Below are positions 8,742-32,000 of a stretch of 32,000 bases of DNA, piece after piece. Made by a program: the position numbers and the translations under genes. Source of the DNA: Pseudoalteromonas translucida KMM 520. Lineage in GTDB: Bacteria > Pseudomonadota > Gammaproteobacteria > Enterobacterales > Alteromonadaceae. The DNA lies in NCBI RefSeq assembly GCF_001465295.1, contig NZ_CP011035.1:725206-757205 (forward strand), read 5' to 3'. Every line of letters starts with the position of its first letter. The first letter of the stretch is position 1. Under the pieces are notes generated by a model. It did no database searches and was not told where the DNA came from. It worked only from the letters and a program-made list of their open reading frames with translations.

Positions 8742-9731
8742 TTGTTATCTAATATTCCTTTTTCGTTATTAGAGCTTGCCCCGATGCCCAAAGGGGCAAC
8801 GGTATCCGAAACGCTACATAAAAGTACTAAATATGCTCAAAGAGCCGACGAGCTAGGTTTTAATCGCTTTTGGTTAGCAGAGCACCATAATATGCCAGGC
8901 ATTATATGTGCAGCTACCTCTATTTTAGTGGGCCATATAGCCAGTAAAACCGATCGTATACGTGTAGGCTCGGGGGGGATTATGCTGCCAAATCACTCGC
9001 CATTAGTTGTAGCCGAACAATTTGGTACATTAGAGAGCTTATACCCAGGGCGTATTGATTTAGGGCTTGGCCGTGCACCAGGAAGCGATCCTATTACGAG
9101 TAGAGCTTTAAATTCAGACATGAGCCGAGCAGAGCGCTTCCCTCAAGAAGTAACCGAACTGCAAACCTTATTAGGGCCGTATAATGGCACTCACCCAATA
9201 CGCGCTATACCCGGTGAGGACACCAATATACCAATTTGGTTATTAGGCTCAAGCTTGTTTAGTGCGCAACTGGCAGCGCAAAAAGGGTTACCGTATGTGT
9301 TTGCAGGGCACTTTGCTCCGCGCTTTTTGTACGATGCCATAGAGCTGTATAAGCGCGAATTTAAACCTTCAAAGGTGCTTGATAAGCCATACATAATGCT
9401 GGCATTACCGCTGGTGGCAGCCGATACCGACGAAGAAGCACAATACCTATCGACCACTTCGCAACAACGAGTACTTGCGCTAATGCGTGGCAGCGAATTA
9501 TGGCTACAACCACCTGTTGACTCTATGGATGGCCTATGGAGTGAGCAAGAACGCGTACAAGTGGAAAACTTTTTAAGTTTAAGTGTAATAGGTGGGCATG
9601 TAAGTATAAGACACAAGTTAGAAATGATAGTAAAAGAGCTGGGCGTTGATGAATTTATATTTACCAACGATTTATACGACAGCGAAAAACGCCATAGAGC
9701 TATCGAAATTTTAATGGAATTAAAACGTTAA
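8742..9731 (+). CDS. Luciferase-like (LLM class) flavin-dependent oxidoreductase, YhbW-like group
   Basis: The FSLLELAP..., FNRFWLAEHHNMPGI, IRVGSGGIMLPNHSPLVVAEQFGTLESLYPGRIDLGLGRAPG pattern is typical of group-1 LLM proteins. The start codon is TTG. Confidence 0.82.
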   Translation: MLSNIPFSLLELAPMPKGATVSETLHKSTKYAQRADELGFNRFWLAEHHNMPGIICAATSILVGHIASKTDRIRVGSGGIMLPNHSPLVVAEQFGTLESLYPGRIDLGLGRAPGSDPITSRALNSDMSRAERFPQEVTELQTLLGPYNGTHPIRAIPGEDTNIPIWLLGSSLFSAQLAAQKGLPYVFAGHFAPRFLYDAIELYKREFKPSKVLDKPYIMLALPLVAADTDEEAQYLSTTSQQRVLALMRGSELWLQPPVDSMDGLWSEQERVQVENFLSLSVIGGHVSIRHKLEMIVKELGVDEFIFTNDLYDSEKRHRAIEILMELKR

Positions 9732-16439: not shown

Positions 16440-16467
16440 ACAACCCATAAATTACGTTATGTTAAAT
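16440..16467 (+). other. dif-like Xer recombination site (11+6+11 architecture)
   Basis: ACAACCCATAA-ATTACG-TTATGTTAAAT compared with E. coli dif GGTGCGCATAA-TGTATA-TTATGTTAAAT. The XerD arm matches 11/11 and the XerC arm 6/11, with the inner CATAA conserved. The site is intergenic. Confidence 0.55.
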
Positions 16468-17237: not shown

Positions 17238-18449
17238 ATGCTAGTTGCTTTGGTTGATACGTTAAAACAATTGAGATATCAAATTGCTCATCTTGAAGAT
17301 AATACTTTAAATTCAGAATATCCAGAACTGGCTACCTTTATACAGCAAGTTGGCTTGACTGTAACTGAATCAAAACAAGATCTTACCTTCTTATACCAGT
17401 TTTTATATGTTTATGGTCGCAAATCGGAAGCAACCTATAGTCGATTTAGAAGTGAACTTGAACGTTTTTATTTATGGGCATGGTTAGTCGCTGAAAAGTC
17501 AGTATTTGATTTAAAGCGCGAAGATATTGAAGGTTATGTAGATTTTGTTGTTGAACCAGATAAAGCCTGGGCTACAACATCAGTACAATGGCGTTATAAA
17601 GACGAACAAGGTATTCGCCGCTTAAATACAAATTGGCGCCCTTTCATCCAAAAAGAATCAATTGCTAGCCAACAAACATTATCGGCAATGTTTACTGCAC
17701 TTAACGTATTTTATAAATTTGCTATTTTAGAAGAAAAAACCTTTGCAAATTTTGTGCCGGTAGTAAAAAAGAATAGCCCCTATTTGGTGGTTCAATCGCA
17801 AATACAGATCCCCGATACGCTAAGCGATATACAATGGGAATATGTGTTTGGGGTAACGCGCGACTTATGTGAGCAACAACCTGATCTAGAAAGAAATTTA
17901 TTTACTCTGGCATGTTTAAAAGGATTATATTTACGAATATCCGAATTGTCAGAGCGGCCACAATGGTCGCCCGTTATGTCGCATTTTTGGCAAGACAACG
18001 ATGGCTTTTGGTTTTTGCGTATTATGGGTAAGGGTAATAAATTACGAGATGTAACTCTAAGCGATGATTTTGTTGAATATTTAAAACGCTACCGACTTTA
18101 TCGTGGTTTACCTGCCCTACCACGCGTTGATGAATCTGATCCCTTAGTGCATAAAATTCGTGGCCAAGGTGGCATGACTGTTAGGCAAATACGACGTTTG
18201 GTACAACAAAGTTTTGACTTAGCTCAGCAATCTTTACTCGATGATGGTTTTAAAGATGATTCTGAACAACTTGAAGCTGCAACCGCACATTGGCTTAGAC
18301 ATACAGGTGCAACACACGATGCGCAAACACGACCACTCAAACATTTATCTGAAGATTTAGGACACGCAAAAATAGCAACTACAGACCAAATTTATATTCA
18401 AACAAATATAAAAGAACGTGCAAAATCTGGTTTAAAAAGGAAAATATAA
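17238..18449 (+). CDS. Tyrosine site-specific recombinase (phage-integrase family)
   Basis: The catalytic signature is GLYLRISEL (box I Arg), HWLRHTGATH (HxxR) and LGHAKIATTDQIY (His...Tyr nucleophile). There is an N-terminal SAM-like core-binding domain. Length is 403 aa. Confidence 0.85.
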   Translation: MLVALVDTLKQLRYQIAHLEDNTLNSEYPELATFIQQVGLTVTESKQDLTFLYQFLYVYGRKSEATYSRFRSELERFYLWAWLVAEKSVFDLKREDIEGYVDFVVEPDKAWATTSVQWRYKDEQGIRRLNTNWRPFIQKESIASQQTLSAMFTALNVFYKFAILEEKTFANFVPVVKKNSPYLVVQSQIQIPDTLSDIQWEYVFGVTRDLCEQQPDLERNLFTLACLKGLYLRISELSERPQWSPVMSHFWQDNDGFWFLRIMGKGNKLRDVTLSDDFVEYLKRYRLYRGLPALPRVDESDPLVHKIRGQGGMTVRQIRRLVQQSFDLAQQSLLDDGFKDDSEQLEAATAHWLRHTGATHDAQTRPLKHLSEDLGHAKIATTDQIYIQTNIKERAKSGLKRKI

Positions 18450-28115: not shown

Positions 28116-28386
28116 ATTCATTCCTCATTCCTATTTACCTGATACAACGAAATTAACGTATGCAGGGCTGTTTGTTCAAGGACTAAATTCACTATTTACT
28201 AATTATTTAGTTATGGGTTAGGTAATTAATATATTTAGCCGTATATGTTGGGCCCTTAGCGCAAGTATAAAATGGTAAATAGAAAACATATAATCAATAT
28301 AAAACATATAGTTAAGTTAGATCATGGTTACTTTTGAGTTGTTGACCTACATTCAATCTGAGTTAATTGTTATAACAGACTAAATT

Positions 28387-28403
28387 AGGAACACATCATA
28401 CTT
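28387..28403 (-). other. Ter-like motif copy a (candidate Tus-binding site)
   Basis: The minus strand reads AAGTATGATGTGTTCCT. It is one of three near-identical 17-mers. Its first 11 nt match E. coli Ter positions 4-14 (AAGTATGTTGT) at 10/11. Confidence 0.45.
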
Positions 28404-29111
28404 TAAATGCATCAGGTGTATCATTAGCTTTACAGCAAACTTAAATAATAATTAACCAATGACTATGCGCTTTTAAAAATACATGCTATGTCGCGTTTTA
28501 TTTGCCACAACAACACATATAAGAGGTTTATATACAGCGGCTAATGCTCAACCTGGTTAAGGTTAAAGTACTCATTTTTAGTTCGGTACTAAGTTTTATA
28601 AAAATGTGAATACTGGTAGTTATTATCGAGGTTAAAATTTATTACAACACGTTTAGTTTTTACGCTTAATAATCTTATGCAGTTAAGCGTAATAGATATA
28701 ACAACGTAAGTATTACCCCTTTGGTATAATACTATACGTAAAGCTTATATCAGCTATGTATTCAAGTCACCCGTTTTGAACGGCGCTAATTTATACCACT
28801 AGCCTCTTCATTAGTTCAGTTACAGGGCAACTCAAAACGGTTTGCGCTCTACTGTAATTAATAAATGTATATTCAGCGCTCACAAACTAAATACTTCAAG
28901 CACCCTAAAGTATGACCCGGTTAATAATATCAAGCTCACTTAAAAGCCTAGCTACAAATTATGGCTAAAGTTAAATTACACTGAGAAGCTAATAGACCGT
29001 TTTTTGCTGTAACTTATATCGGTATACAAATGTGAATATTGGGGAATTATTATTAATATCCAACCTACTCAAATGCATAAACACGAGTTATTAAGTTTAA
29101 CAAAAGAGATA

Positions 29112-29128
29112 AAGAACACATCGTACTT
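29112..29128 (-). other. Ter-like motif copy b (candidate Tus-binding site)
   Basis: The minus strand reads AAGTACGATGTGTTCTT. It is the inverted partner of copy c, with 18-bp arms (29111-29128 and 29211-29228) complementary at 17/18. Confidence 0.45.
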
Positions 29129-29210
29129 AATTAAGTATAAGGTTATCTAAGCACTGAGTAAAATTAAATTATTAGTTAAACAAAGATAAGGTTATGTGCG
29201 ATAATTAGTT

Positions 29211-29227
29211 AAGTAAGATGTGTTCTT
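29211..29227 (+). other. Ter-like motif copy c, abutting the tus ribosome-binding site
   Basis: The plus strand reads AAGTAAGATGTGTTCTT, followed by tGGAGGttgcATG (the tus start). The position is analogous to TerB upstream of E. coli tus. Confidence 0.45.
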
Positions 29228-29237
29228 TGGAGGTTGC

Positions 29238-30113
29238 ATGGTAACTAAAGTACAAATAAGAAGTCAGTTTGATTTAATGAGCGAACTAACATTAAGGCTA
29301 ATAGAAGAGCTTAACCTGTGTGAATATACAAAAGCCGAATATTATCAACTTCCCGATATAAGCACAGTTGATGAAAATAAAGTAGCCGAATCGATTAAGG
29401 TTACTAAAATATCAGGCGAACTAGCACATAAAGCTATATTAAATTCCTTTACTGATATTTATAAAAAACAAGGGCTAAGTAGCCGGGTTTTAAAGCGTCA
29501 CCCTGGCCTATTGGTTATAAAAAATGCTGACAAACAAGCATTAATTAATCGAATTGCTCAAGTAAATAAAGCAAAAGCAGCGTTTAAAGAGTGCATTTTA
29601 GCTATTGATAACAACGATGCTCGTTTTGAAGCGGTACATAATGCAGTACCCAACTTAATTACTTTGGCTGCTTATCGAAAAATTCATAGTGAACATGAAT
29701 CGCCTTTTTCAGTACGATTTACCTGGATGCACAAACATGCAACTAAAACACTGACCAAAAAAATGGCCCTCGAAATGTTACAAAAGTCAGCTAGTTATAG
29801 AAACCCCAGAATGATCGATCAGCAAAAATGGCAGGCGCTAGTAGCACAAGAGCAATTACGGGTAGCAAGTTTAGGTGAAAAAGAAAAACTTAGAATTAGG
29901 CGCCCTACTCGGGTTAGCCCTCAGGTAAATGTGCGTTATACCGCGCAAAACCGTTATCACGTAAGTGCGGCGCTACCTTTTATTTTAATAAACCCAGAAC
30001 CAGACGTAAAACTGGGGTTATTACCAAATTACGAAAAGCCATTAAGTCATCCACGAAAACGTGACTATGATTTTTTAGTAGATCGACTTTATTTAGAACA
30101 AGTAGAAAAGTGA
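29238..30113 (+). CDS. tus: DNA replication terminus site-binding protein (Tus homologue)
   Basis: By-eye alignment to E. coli Tus: [22 protein letters not shown] / [31 protein letters not shown] / [26 protein letters not shown] / LKIKRPVKVQPIARVWY; LPFILIN / TPLIALIN. The ATG at 29238 has a GGAGG 4 nt upstream. The track's GTG at 29220 is unlikely. Confidence 0.82.
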   Translation: [291 protein letters not shown]

Positions 30114-30122
30114 TTATGTTAA

Positions 30123-30145
30123 AAAGGTCACGCTAGGTGACCTTT
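30123..30145. terminator. Bidirectional terminator between convergent tus and rep genes
   Basis: AAAGGTCAC-gctag-GTGACCTTT with A-run and T-rich flanks. Confidence 0.75.
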
Positions 30146-30172: not shown

Positions 30173-31402
30173 TTACTTATCTACTATTTCAACAAGTTTG
30201 TCTTCATCAATAAGCACAGCATTTTCTACAATACGCTTACCGCCTTGTATTTCAATACGTTTATTGTGTTTATTCAGAGTAAGTATTTCATCACAAAATT
30301 GATCTGATGGATGCATTTCGTAAGTGTAGTCAATAATATTACCGGTTTTATCGTCTTTAACATTGGTAATACTGTACTCAGAGATAGCCCCTTTTTCGAT
30401 CAAATCTTTCATTGTTGTGGTCATATCACGACGCAGCGCTTTTAATTTATTTTCGGTAATATTATCCGTTGAATAAATTGAGCCGTACTTTTCCATAATA
30501 GACAATAATCTAAAATGGTATGTTTTTCCCGGAGCTGCATAACGCCAAAGGTGATATAAGCGCAGCATCATCCAACGCGATAATCCGCGTTTTAATTCTT
30601 GGGCGCTGTTAAAGTAATATCCTTTGTATTCAAGGTTATCAATCATGTTATGTACAAATGCATTTAAACACGCAACACATTTAACATTACCGCCTTGCCC
30701 TTTTTTTCCACTAAAATGCAGTGACGATAAAAAGTTCATATTCGATTCGTAAAACGAATCATCAATGTTTGTATTTTTTGTATCTGTTGCTGAATATTTA
30801 AACGAAAGTTTTGAGCCTTGTAATGCTTCAAGTGATTCTTTAATTTGTGGATATGGCATAGATTGGCCAACGGTTTTCAGCTCTTGTGCTAATTCGTTCA
30901 TCGAAAAAACAACAGCATATTGAATACCGGACTTAAAATTTATTTTTACTATTTTGCCTTTAGAAGCTAAACGGATCAGCGCACGCTCTACTTTTTCTTC
31001 TCTATCTGACGGCCAAACCAAATATTCTACGTCTTCACCATCTTTGCGTGTGCTAACAACCGCCGGCGTTATTTTTAATTCGCCGTCGTACAAAATACCA
31101 TCTATTTTTTCAGATATTTTGCGTGTAATTATTGTTTTTTTAGGTGCTTCTTCTAATGGTAATTTTTTATGCCCCGAACGGACAAAGCGTCCCCATAAAT
31201 CATAATGGTTAAAAGTATTCGAATAAGCACGTAATCCATGAGCTGCATTTTCTATCGAAATCCGCACATCTTTATTATCTGTAAACAGTGCTAAGCTTTC
31301 ATTATCAATTGCACTTTCCACCCCGTGAATTTGGCCCCTTAGTGTATCGGGCAAGTTATCTACCGAGATGTTGACCTTTCGGCTCATTGTTGTTATTTCC
31401 AT
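30173..31402 (-). CDS. Plasmid-type replication initiator (Rep; possibly TrfA-like), family not resolved
   Basis: This large ORF (about 405-410 aa) is very AT-rich and lies directly adjacent to 19-bp iterons, with inverted iterons over its upstream region. The segment LSRWMMLRLYHLWRYAAPGKTYHFRLLSIMEKYGS loosely recalls the TrfA motif LAQWLHGYYSSHAKPFPVKVETLRELSGS. The start is ambiguous (ATG at 31402 or 31387; the track's start at 31429 is a GTG). Confidence 0.6.
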   Translation of the reverse strand: MEITTMSRKVNISVDNLPDTLRGQIHGVESAIDNESLALFTDNKDVRISIENAAHGLRAYSNTFNHYDLWGRFVRSGHKKLPLEEAPKKTIITRKISEKIDGILYDGELKITPAVVSTRKDGEDVEYLVWPSDREEKVERALIRLASKGKIVKINFKSGIQYAVVFSMNELAQELKTVGQSMPYPQIKESLEALQGSKLSFKYSATDTKNTNIDDSFYESNMNFLSSLHFSGKKGQGGNVKCVACLNAFVHNMIDNLEYKGYYFNSAQELKRGLSRWMMLRLYHLWRYAAPGKTYHFRLLSIMEKYGSIYSTDNITENKLKALRRDMTTTMKDLIEKGAISEYSITNVKDDKTGNIIDYTYEMHPSDQFCDEILTLNKHNKRIEIQGGKRIVENAVLIDEDKLVEIVDK

Positions 31403-31457
31403 TTTTATTGCGACAGCTAATAACAACACATAAAGACAAAAAAGTTAAATGTTTAAG

Positions 31458-31476
31458 TTAGTATAAAAGTGATCTG
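31458..31476 (+). repeat. Iteron 1
   Basis: TTAGTATAAAAGTGATCTG; consensus TTAGTAWAAARNTGATCTG. Confidence 0.75.
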
Positions 31477-31493
31477 AGCTAAAATAAAACCTT

Positions 31494-31512
31494 CGGATCA
31501 CTATTATACTAA
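31494..31512 (-). repeat. Iteron 2 (inverted)
   Basis: The minus strand reads TTAGTATAATAGTGATCCG. Confidence 0.7.
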
Positions 31513-31535
31513 GCGGATGCTAATTAACTTAATTT

Positions 31536-31554
31536 CAGATCATTATTTTACTAA
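31536..31554 (-). repeat. Iteron 3 (inverted)
   Basis: The minus strand reads TTAGTAAAATAATGATCTG. Confidence 0.7.
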
Positions 31555-31565
31555 CTAGGCGGTTA

Positions 31566-31584
31566 CAAATCTCATTTTTACTAA
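31566..31584 (-). repeat. Iteron 4 (inverted, degenerate, lacks GATC)
   Basis: The minus strand reads TTAGTAAAAATGAGATTTG. Confidence 0.45.
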
Positions 31585-31662
31585 CTCAGTGAGATTTTTG
31601 TCCATTACAAAGCTAAATTTTTAATATTTAACACGACAAATTAACTAAAAAACTAAAAGCCC

Positions 31663-31671
31663 TGTTGATAA
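31663..31671 (-). promoter_or_regulatory. DnaA-box-like 9-mer (one mismatch)
   Basis: TGTTGATAA equals TTATCAACA on the minus strand, versus the consensus TTATCCACA. It lies in the AT-rich spacer between the iteron groups. Confidence 0.3.
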
Positions 31672-31688
31672 GCATATATTGAGTTAGC

Positions 31689-31725
31689 ATAGATCTGATC
31701 TGTACCTACTACAGATCAGATCTAT
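31689..31725. repeat. Perfect 16-bp-arm palindrome carrying four GATC sites
   Basis: ATAGATCTGATCTGTA-cctac-TACAGATCAGATCTAT. The half-site AGATCTGATCT recurs at 31893-31903. Confidence 0.9.
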
Positions 31726-31779
31726 ACTAATTAAAAGCCTTCTTTTACTACAGAGTCGGTGTATAACTTTATAATTTAC

Positions 31780-31798
31780 TTAGTATAAAACTGATCTA
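31780..31798 (+). repeat. Iteron 5
   Basis: TTAGTATAAAACTGATCTA. Confidence 0.75.
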
Positions 31799-31862
31799 AC
31801 AGACCTTTTTTGTGCACAACTTAATGATTAACCTGTGTGTAACTATTGTTTTAATTTACAGC

Positions 31863-31881
31863 TTAGTAAAAAGCTGATCTG
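31863..31881 (+). repeat. Iteron 6
   Basis: TTAGTAAAAAGCTGATCTG. Confidence 0.75.
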
Positions 31882-31907
31882 CAAGTAGATAAAGATCTGA
31901 TCTTAAC

Positions 31908-31926
31908 CAAGTATAAAGTTGATCTG
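31908..31926 (+). repeat. Iteron 7
   Basis: CAAGTATAAAGTTGATCTG. Confidence 0.7.
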
Positions 31927-32000
31927 CTTATTTTATTATTATTCATATAAATCATGTGTTTATCACCTATATTTAAGCCTCTATCCTTTAATACCTTATA

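Follow-up and report, generated by a model that had tools for sequence, protein, structure and literature searches.

Conserved motifs beside tus are very probably the hitherto undefined Ter sites that make a Pseudoalteromonas chromid replicate one way

Described fork traps and the Pseudoalteromonas locus

In the Tus-Ter fork trap of Escherichia coli, the asymmetric site TerB lies just upstream of tus with its G6 end facing away from the gene, and the trap as a whole spans hundreds of kb opposite oriC. We describe here a tus locus of Pseudoalteromonas translucida KMM 520, contained in a stretch of 32,000 nucleotides (nt) from NCBI RefSeq assembly GCF_001465295.1 (contig NZ_CP011035.1, positions 725,206 to 757,205 of the forward strand; “the window” throughout), in which three copies of a Ter-like motif lie upstream of tus. 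The encoded protein belongs to the same family as E. coli Tus (PF05472) and the copy nearest to the gene is placed as TerB is, but the predicted trap measures 82 bp and lies 2.3 kb from the origin. Judged from sequence comparison, these motifs are very probably the hitherto undefined Ter sites that make the chromid replicate one way. What would be new is a separate Ter family in a trap of between 17 bp and 1 kb, with back-up sites on one side only and at a distance of 2.3 kb from the origin, on a chromid with a tus of its own.

Plasmid R6K has a closely spaced inverted Ter pair on a plasmid-type replicon, as does the window, but its terminus is not beside a single origin and the plasmid has no tus gene, using instead the host Tus with E. 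coli-type Ter. Plasmid R1, too, depends on the Tus of its host, and its Ter sites are of the E. coli type. Its two opposed, origin-adjacent sites, terRL and terRR, are the closest functional analogue of the present arrangement (Hill 1988; Krabbe 1997; PMC10331603), where one Ter blocks a fork almost at once and so enforces unidirectionality, and the other stops the fork after one round (PMC10331603). By this analogy the window would have an R1-type layout, with opposed sites within a few kb of the origin of a unidirectional replicon, but the replicon is a chromid of 0.6-1.4 Mb with its own tus, a putative Ter family of its own and back-ups on one side only. Among chromosomal systems, the type I traps of Enterobacterales other than Enterobacteriaceae, exemplified by the Ter1/Ter2 dyad of Edwardsiella tarda (Toft et al. 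2021, PMC8707476), share with this locus an innermost tus-adjacent Ter and a small number of sites, and the architecture resembles an extreme form of such a trap. Type I traps, however, span 18-56 kb of a chromosome that replicates bidirectionally, are situated opposite oriC and have Ter sites that are 74-83% identical to TerB (PMC8707476). The RTP/Ter system of Bacillus subtilis likewise traps forks in a polar manner, and the gene for its terminator protein is autoregulated, but this protein is unrelated and dimeric and its sites are unrelated, which makes the likeness an analogy only.

Pseudoalteromonas chromids are the only bacterial chromosome-class replicons experimentally shown to replicate unidirectionally, and published work has left unanswered by what means this is enforced. 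Marker-frequency analysis established unidirectional chromid replication in eight Pseudoalteromonas strains, and the same study searched for ter with the E. coli consensus, found no sites and asked if a single fork or a pair of forks is involved (Xie 2021). An R1-like way of working has already been proposed for Pseudoalteromonas, in a 2023 review that marks the ter site with a question mark (PMC10331603). The preliminary description of this DNA, made from the letters alone, was aware of no definition of the cis sites, and the literature does call them unknown (Xie 2021; PMC10331603). A search by topic and by motif string, with subscription journals outside its coverage, found no later definition of these ter sites, and the motif string returned only unrelated primer sequences. 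The locus brings no conceptual surprise, since the R1 analogy foresaw such an arrangement; a defined candidate site of 13-17 bp, with positions and polarity, makes the question of enforcement directly testable.

Ter-like sites, Tus and their conservation

The main features of the window are, by position:

16440-16467, plus strand: dif2-like site ACAACCCATAAATTACGTTATGTTAAAT, located via the dif2 coordinates of strain TAC125 (Xie 2021 Table S3), with an intact XerD arm
28387-28403, minus strand: Ter-like site a, an exact match to the motif, core GTATGATGTGTTC on the minus strand; G6 (non-permissive) end towards ori2; proposed distal back-up barrier
28404-29111, no strand: a-b spacer, free of open reading frames (ORFs) and non-conserved
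29112-29128, minus strand: Ter-like site b, an exact match; predicted arrest point of the tus-ward fork from ori2 and predicted fork-fusion point
29211-29227, plus strand: Ter-like site c, an exact match; G6 end away from tus; predicted to bar the fork that arrives after its passage round the replicon, and to serve as Tus operator
29238-30113, plus strand: tus, an ORF with PF05472, PDB 1ECR and NF002810 matches
30173-31429, minus strand: repA, the chromid initiator gene, an ORF; related chromids annotate replication protein A
31430-32000, no strand: ori2 as far as the window reaches, containing 12 GATC sites as well as TTAGTAWAAA-N2-3-TGATC iterons in either orientation

Searching the window with the 17-mer AAGTANGATGTGTTCYT (conserved core GTAWGATGTGTTC) gave exact matches at all three of the coordinates and on the strands first reported for it, and no fourth match in the 32 kb even at 3 mismatches (chance mean 0.54). 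Sites b and c are inverted, with 18-nt arms that are complementary at 17 of 18 positions and 82 bp between them, and site c ends 1 nt before the GGAGG at 29229-29233, ahead of the tus ATG at 29238; both of these readings of the sequence bear out the preliminary description. Sites b and c are 2.2-2.3 kb from ori2. The a-b spacer contains no ORF of at least 40 amino acids, and an Rfam scan of the whole window returned no family over threshold and hence no known RNA in the 1.1-kb intergenic region.

The protein encoded downstream of these sites had been recognized as a Tus homologue by eye, and database matches uphold this. The coding sequence (CDS) at 29238-30113 matches Pfam PF05472 with E=1e-96 and 324 bits (cut-off 22) over profile positions 1-295 of 296, reaches E. 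coli Tus in the PDB with phmmer (1ECR/2I06, E=6e-27, residues 29-255) and scores above the NCBIfam NF002810 cut-off (360 bits, cut-off 323). On these profiles it is beyond doubt a Tus protein and a full-length member of the family. It is about 30% identical to E. coli Tus and does not reach the enterobacterial Tus model TIGR02648 (122 bits against a cut-off of 178). When E. coli Tus is aligned with eight diverse Pseudoalteromonas Tus proteins, residues E49, F140, H144, L150, K175, H176, R198 and R232 are invariant. E49 and R198 of E. coli Tus are important for fork arrest, and the pocket of the C6 lock, which Mulcair et al. are said to have described in 2006, reportedly consists of I79, F140, H144, G149 and L150.

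We numbered the motif in a register inferred from TerB. The conserved span is (TTAA) followed by G6 T7 A8 W9 G10 A11 T12 G13 T14 G15 T16 T17 C18 T19 T20, set in random flanks, and its positions 6-10 and 12-14 are the same as in TerB (GTATG.TGT). Site c is placed and oriented as TerB is in MG1655, immediately upstream of tus and with G6 at the end remote from the gene; its G6 is 25 nt from the tus ATG, compared with 28 nt for E. coli TerB. A tus-adjacent upstream site facing non-permissively away from the gene is found in most loci besides the window, and it is inverted in the P. piscicida clade and in two deep lineages. Variation is found at position 9 (T, A or C) and, among the deep lineages, also at position 7, where T has become C in locus L066 and G in locus L074. 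Positions 7 and 9 are also the variable ones among E. coli Ter sites. G6, whose partner C6 is essential for the Tus-Ter lock in E. coli (PMC4499146), is kept in all sites bar one distal site of locus L061. This site, the most distal but one of that locus (9242-9254), carries G6 to T and may be decaying.

The sites were compared in 42 species-level Pseudoalteromonas tus loci, with Tus 52-90% identical to that of the window. All 42 have the same three-site layout at up to 3 mismatches to the 17-mer, and every mismatch falls within the outer two positions at either side. The exact 13-nt core used in the locus counts, GTANGATGTGTTC, gives the pattern “--+” in 42 of 46 loci, “-+” in three (two of them on truncated contigs) and “----+” in one, where sites oriented as a and b are written as minus and those oriented as c as plus; elsewhere in the roughly 330 kb of flanking DNA from these 46 loci the core is absent. 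At some 50 species-level loci, in which Tus identity falls as low as 47%, the core GTAWGATGTGTTC is invariant around tus, and deeper lineages (Tus 45-58% identical) mostly keep the core. In an alignment of 38 loci, the only parts of the 200 bp upstream of tus that are at least 98% conserved are 29114-29126 and 29213-29225, within sites b and c. For the spacer at 28.52-29.07 kb, no similarity was detected in any related locus compared.

The order of the sites is equally regular: (-) sites, one to four in number, come first, a (+) site follows in at most one copy, and repA/ori2 comes last. Inward-facing (-) sites followed by a (+) site are present in 46 of 46 loci, and also in L061, L066, L067 and L074. 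Without exception, the (-) sites lie on the far side from ori2, and any (+) site lies on the ori2 side; (-) sites are near-universal, and some lineages have a displaced (+) site or lack it. The orientation of site b is constant across all loci, and nearly all have a distal (-) site 110-1400 bp from it. In the P. piscicida group (Pseudoalteromonas sp. NC201 and a related 875-kb contig), tus lies within the trap, with the (+) site between tus and repA. The relation of the sites to tus has thus changed there, and the order (-)...(-), (+), repA/ori2 is unchanged. Two deep lineages have (-) sites only, and in locus L069, a 921-kb contig, no (+) site was found within 10 kb on either side of tus. One of the (-) sites in the lineage of L069 and L064 is inside the CDS of a FecCD-type permease inserted upstream of tus. 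The sites of these rearranged loci, in the coordinates of each locus, are:

L046 5987-5999 and 6974-6986; L061 9984-9996 and 10942-10954: P. piscicida group, a (-) site 1-4 nt before the tus ATG and the sole (+) site downstream of tus
L069 9557-9569 and 9942-9954; L064 1131-1143 and 1516-1528: deep lineage with two (-) sites

The gap between b and c is 17 bp at its narrowest, in strain T1lg65, 80-135 bp in other cases and about 1 kb at its widest. This free spacing suggests that the sites act independently, which fits a monomeric binder and not a dimer operator. In Pseudoalteromonas sp. T1lg65 (L067 7928-7940 and 7958-7970), the inward G6 ends of the (-) and (+) sites are the 17 bp apart, and two Tus monomers bound to them would nearly touch.

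A scan of the complete replicon, which the preliminary description had called for, was made on the chromid of strain HL-AS2 (NZ_CP133572.1, filed as a plasmid; 680,547 bp), where Tus is 99.3% identical to that of the window and the gene order is the same. The exact core occurs there at three sites only, all of them upstream of tus (shuffles 0.2), and the scatter at unrelated loci that the preliminary description had named as fatal to its model is not seen on this chromid. There are no matches at one mismatch (shuffles 2.4) and 22 at two (shuffles 54), the latter with a strand bias of 16:6 that reflects how G+T-rich the motif is on the leading strand. We rejected these 22 matches as pseudo-Ter sites, since they are fewer than chance would give and their bias is explained by base composition. 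The shortage of near-matches may, tentatively and as measured with mononucleotide shuffles only, reflect avoidance of spurious Tus sites.

Fork direction, the proposed trap and rival explanations

The window fits at the end of the replicon when it is placed by the ori2 and dif2 coordinates that have been published for TAC125 chromosome II, and on this basis it is the ori2-proximal end of a P. haloplanktis TAC125-type chromid. Its DNA is rich in iterons and GATC from about 31.43 kb, which agrees with the position of TAC125 ori2 (Xie 2021 Table S3) and with the iteron origin placed at 31.4-32 kb in the preliminary description. This region includes a 26-nt palindrome at 31679-31735, and iterons of this type are conserved throughout the genus. 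Wherever a locus extends far enough, repA is downstream of tus on the opposite strand. RepA (30173-31429) has no Pfam or NCBIfam match, and the true start of the gene is probably near 31387, since the annotated homologue has 404 amino acids. RepA is 95-97% identical where Tus is 75-90% identical and 87-91% identical where Tus is at about 50%; by these comparisons the initiator evolves far slower than the terminator protein.

The direction of the long fork can be read from the HL-AS2 chromid, where G-C sums to -8884 over the record and the cumulative GC skew curve is monotonic, with no V; the skew is weak in the first 120 kb, which are rich in insertion sequences. The monotonic skew means that the long fork exits ori2 via parAB and meets the sites from the side of a. 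This was the outcome predicted in the preliminary description, and it matches the unidirectionality found by marker frequency (Xie 2021). The sites are at the replication terminus. In the clade I chromids (P. spongiae, P. piratica OCN003 and Pseudoalteromonas sp. SAO4-4), which replicate bidirectionally, tus still adjoins ori2 and dif2 is at 48-50% of the replicon (Xie 2021). The chromid of P. spongiae JCM 12884 has 1,598,238 bp, with tus at 1,595,454-1,596,317 and dif2 at 819,264. Protein searches directed at the Tus of this clade gave other deep lineages and no sequence assignable to it.

We consider it likely that the three motifs are the Ter sites of the chromid, that each is bound by one Tus monomer, and that together they form a narrow polar fork trap about 2.3 kb from ori2. 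A fork trap enforcing unidirectional replication was what the preliminary description had proposed, and each part of it that can be tested in silico (the scan, the skew, the conserved polarity and the TerB-like site c) came out as predicted. If E. coli polarity holds, the trap would be from 17 bp to 1 kb wide across the loci. In the proposed sequence of events, RepA would bind the iterons and initiate at ori2, and forks would leave both ways. The tus-ward fork would pass c from its permissive side, replicate through tus and be arrested at b, whose G6/C6 end faces ori2 and where a C6 lock could form, with a held in reserve. The arrest at b would have to last for the whole replication period, a demand that would explain why there are multiple (-) sites and at most one (+) site. 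The other fork would exit via parAB, copy the remaining ~630 kb, pass dif2 and site a permissively and fuse with the stalled fork at b. Termination had been expected within an interval of about 80 bp, and the b-c trap is indeed 82 bp wide, but fusion would be expected at b and not anywhere in the gap. Should there be no stalled fork, c would halt the long fork before it re-entered tus, repA and ori2 and over-replicated them, as terRR does in R1. Tus on c would also sit between the likely promoter and the ribosome-binding site of tus and could repress its own gene, a role that is suggested by the position of c and by a weak promoter-like match only.

We argue that polarity relative to ori2 is what selection would preserve here, since the order of the sites is kept in rearranged lineages, their spacing is free and reversed polarity should be non-viable; with opposite polarity, the a-c segment could not be replicated. 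Whether two forks do fire at ori2, one of them being held at Ter b (with a as back-up) for as long as the other takes to copy 0.6-1.4 Mb, is the core of a more far-reaching reading, and we would put the chances of that reading as a whole slightly below even. The lineage with (-) sites only (L069) bears on this question of one or two forks, because a round could end there only by fusion with a stalled fork. On that more far-reaching reading, the replication mode of the chromid would be set after initiation by a 13-bp site and a private Tus, and the switch of clade I from unidirectional replication to a bidirectional mode, the one known case of such a change, would have arisen via loss or relocation of (-) sites. 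The module of tus, vicinal Ter and ori would then be a living example of the plasmid ancestor of the enterobacterial fork trap, with its own Ter family. More generally, if the sites are Ter sites, they would supply a second Ter sequence family for the study of how Tus specificity and the C6 lock evolved, lend support to fork traps having started as origin-proximal devices of plasmids, and offer a compact, orthogonal Tus-Ter pair as a tool.

Several observations weigh against the sites being Ter sites. Positions 11 and 15-20 are unlike every E. coli Ter (A and GTTCTT, where TerB has T and AACTAA), and the motif as a whole agrees with TerB at 10 of 17 positions, which 17.6% of shuffled motifs reach in some register. 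The preliminary description had claimed a match of 10/11 between the left 11 nt of copy a and TerA/TerB. This count is right for MG1655 TerB (AATAAGTATGTTGTAACTAAAGT), but the likeness to TerB, at the overall 10 of 17 just given, is not significant on its own; for TerA the count would be 9/11. The E. coli-type Ter core GTTGTAAC (positions 10-17) is not matched by these sites, and we rejected the E. coli-type consensus GNRNGTTGTAAYKA as a description of them, since positions 11 and 15-20 differ and the likeness to TerB is at chance level. The sites are thus not E. coli-type Ter and would at best be a separate Ter sequence family, and their low likeness to TerB is the probable reason why the E. 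coli-consensus search of Xie 2021 found nothing. In all structural respects open to comparison here they resemble Ter. The homology to Ter in the TerB register is argued from context and not from sequence likeness, and the case that the sites are not due to chance rests on their conservation and genome-wide rarity and not on similarity to E. coli Ter.

The protein and its promoter also supply points of this kind. In the alignment of E. coli Tus with the eight Pseudoalteromonas proteins, the equivalent of I79 is K, L, T or F and that of G149 is N or G. Transcription from the promoter-like match at 29177-29205 would begin where site c has its left edge, but such matches are no more frequent here than chance would give and the hexamers lack conservation, which makes the assignment weak. 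Furthermore, a deep lineage (L068/L070, also L071-L073), seen on five contigs that include TARA marine metagenomes, has an intact Tus of 290 amino acids (45% identical) and has kept the chromid synteny, yet lacks the core. Within 10 kb on either side of tus in this lineage (L068 1-11262, L070 1-11207), neither the core at up to 2 mismatches nor any other repeated motif was found, so that either its Ter has changed or its sites are elsewhere.

Other explanations of the sites can be set against the trap. It is conceivable that a single fork leaves ori2 in the direction away from tus, so that c is the real terminator, stopping this fork after one round, and the (-) sites do no more than intercept stray forks that arise by over-replication or restart. 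Unidirectional initiation is common among theta plasmids (discussion of Xie 2021), R1 without Tus gives rolling-circle products and multimers (PMC10331603), and c is correctly oriented for such a role. We nevertheless find this unlikely, given that it is the (-) sites that are near-universal and multiplied and the (+) site that is single, mobile and, in L069, not found within 10 kb, where a chromid lacking both a stalled fork and a (+) site would have nothing to end the round. If, instead, the sites bound Tus as operators only, of tus and perhaps of its neighbours, there would be no fork arrest and unidirectionality would be set at initiation. A site is indeed always within about 60 nt of the tus start codon, in either orientation, E. 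coli TerB is also an operator (PMC10331603), and Xie 2021 do not settle if one fork or two are at work. An operator, however, needs neither polarity nor back-ups, and there are multiple (-) sites, distal ones as far as 1.4 kb from tus and one inside the FecCD CDS; moreover, the rearrangement that altered the orientation of the sites relative to tus preserved it relative to ori2. Operators alone are therefore quite improbable.

The protein that binds the motif might also be RepA or another chromid maintenance protein, acting in copy control by handcuffing or at a centromere and unrelated to Tus. The greater conservation of RepA (95-97%, compared with 75-90% for Tus) suits an invariant motif and counts against Tus as the binder; the constant linkage of tus, repA and ori2 means that the candidates cannot be told apart by position alone, and a short stretch, AGTA(T/A), is common to the iterons and the motif. 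The iteron is otherwise different, though, and the core never occurs in ori2, which is why we also rejected a derivation of the motif from RepA iterons. Unlike parS or dimer operators, the motif is asymmetric and freely spaced, its left half is GTATG-TGT with G6 as in Ter, and site c copies the position, orientation and start-codon distance of TerB. Binding by a protein other than Tus is accordingly very improbable. As for chance repeats or the remnants of a mobile element, three of 100 window shuffles did give three matches at 3 mismatches, but the copies are exact, are kept in about 50 lineages with unconserved flanks and are unique on a 680-kb replicon. These facts refute a chance or mobile-element origin, to which we assign a negligible probability, and the polar trap bound by Tus is the reading that we retain.

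Other tus loci and neighbouring features

Outside Pseudoalteromonas, neither E. coli-type nor Pseudoalteromonas-type Ter was found near the tus of a Glaciecola plasmid or of an Aeromonas chromosome, and no intermediate series that would link the two motifs was therefore found. The plasmid, pGLAAG01 (locus L062), has no Ter-like site upstream of its tus homologue (29% identical). The gene is preceded there, at about 2955-2985, by a LexA-box-like palindrome, ACTGTATTTAAATACAGT, which hints at SOS control of a mobile tus.

The dif2-like site is 12.7 kb from site b, on the late-replicating side. A search with E. coli dif gave no match at up to 8 mismatches in the window or at up to 7 on the HL-AS2 chromid. 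About 0.8 kb from the dif2-like site is a tyrosine recombinase gene (17238-18449, plus strand; PF00589, E=1e-9), the product of which has XerC/XerD-like scores far below the NCBIfam cut-offs.

Two further elements flank or follow the tus gene:

29177-29205, plus strand: promoter-like element for tus, with -35 TAAACA, a 17-nt spacer and a TG-extended -10 GATAAT, from a consensus scan
30123-30145, plus strand: terminator-like hairpin between tus and repA

Conservation across about 30 related loci is also seen at the far end of the intergenic region, in its first 100 bp (28122-28221), next to where a class II DAHP synthase gene starts. This stretch is probably the promoter or leader of the DAHP synthase gene and unrelated to the Ter sites.

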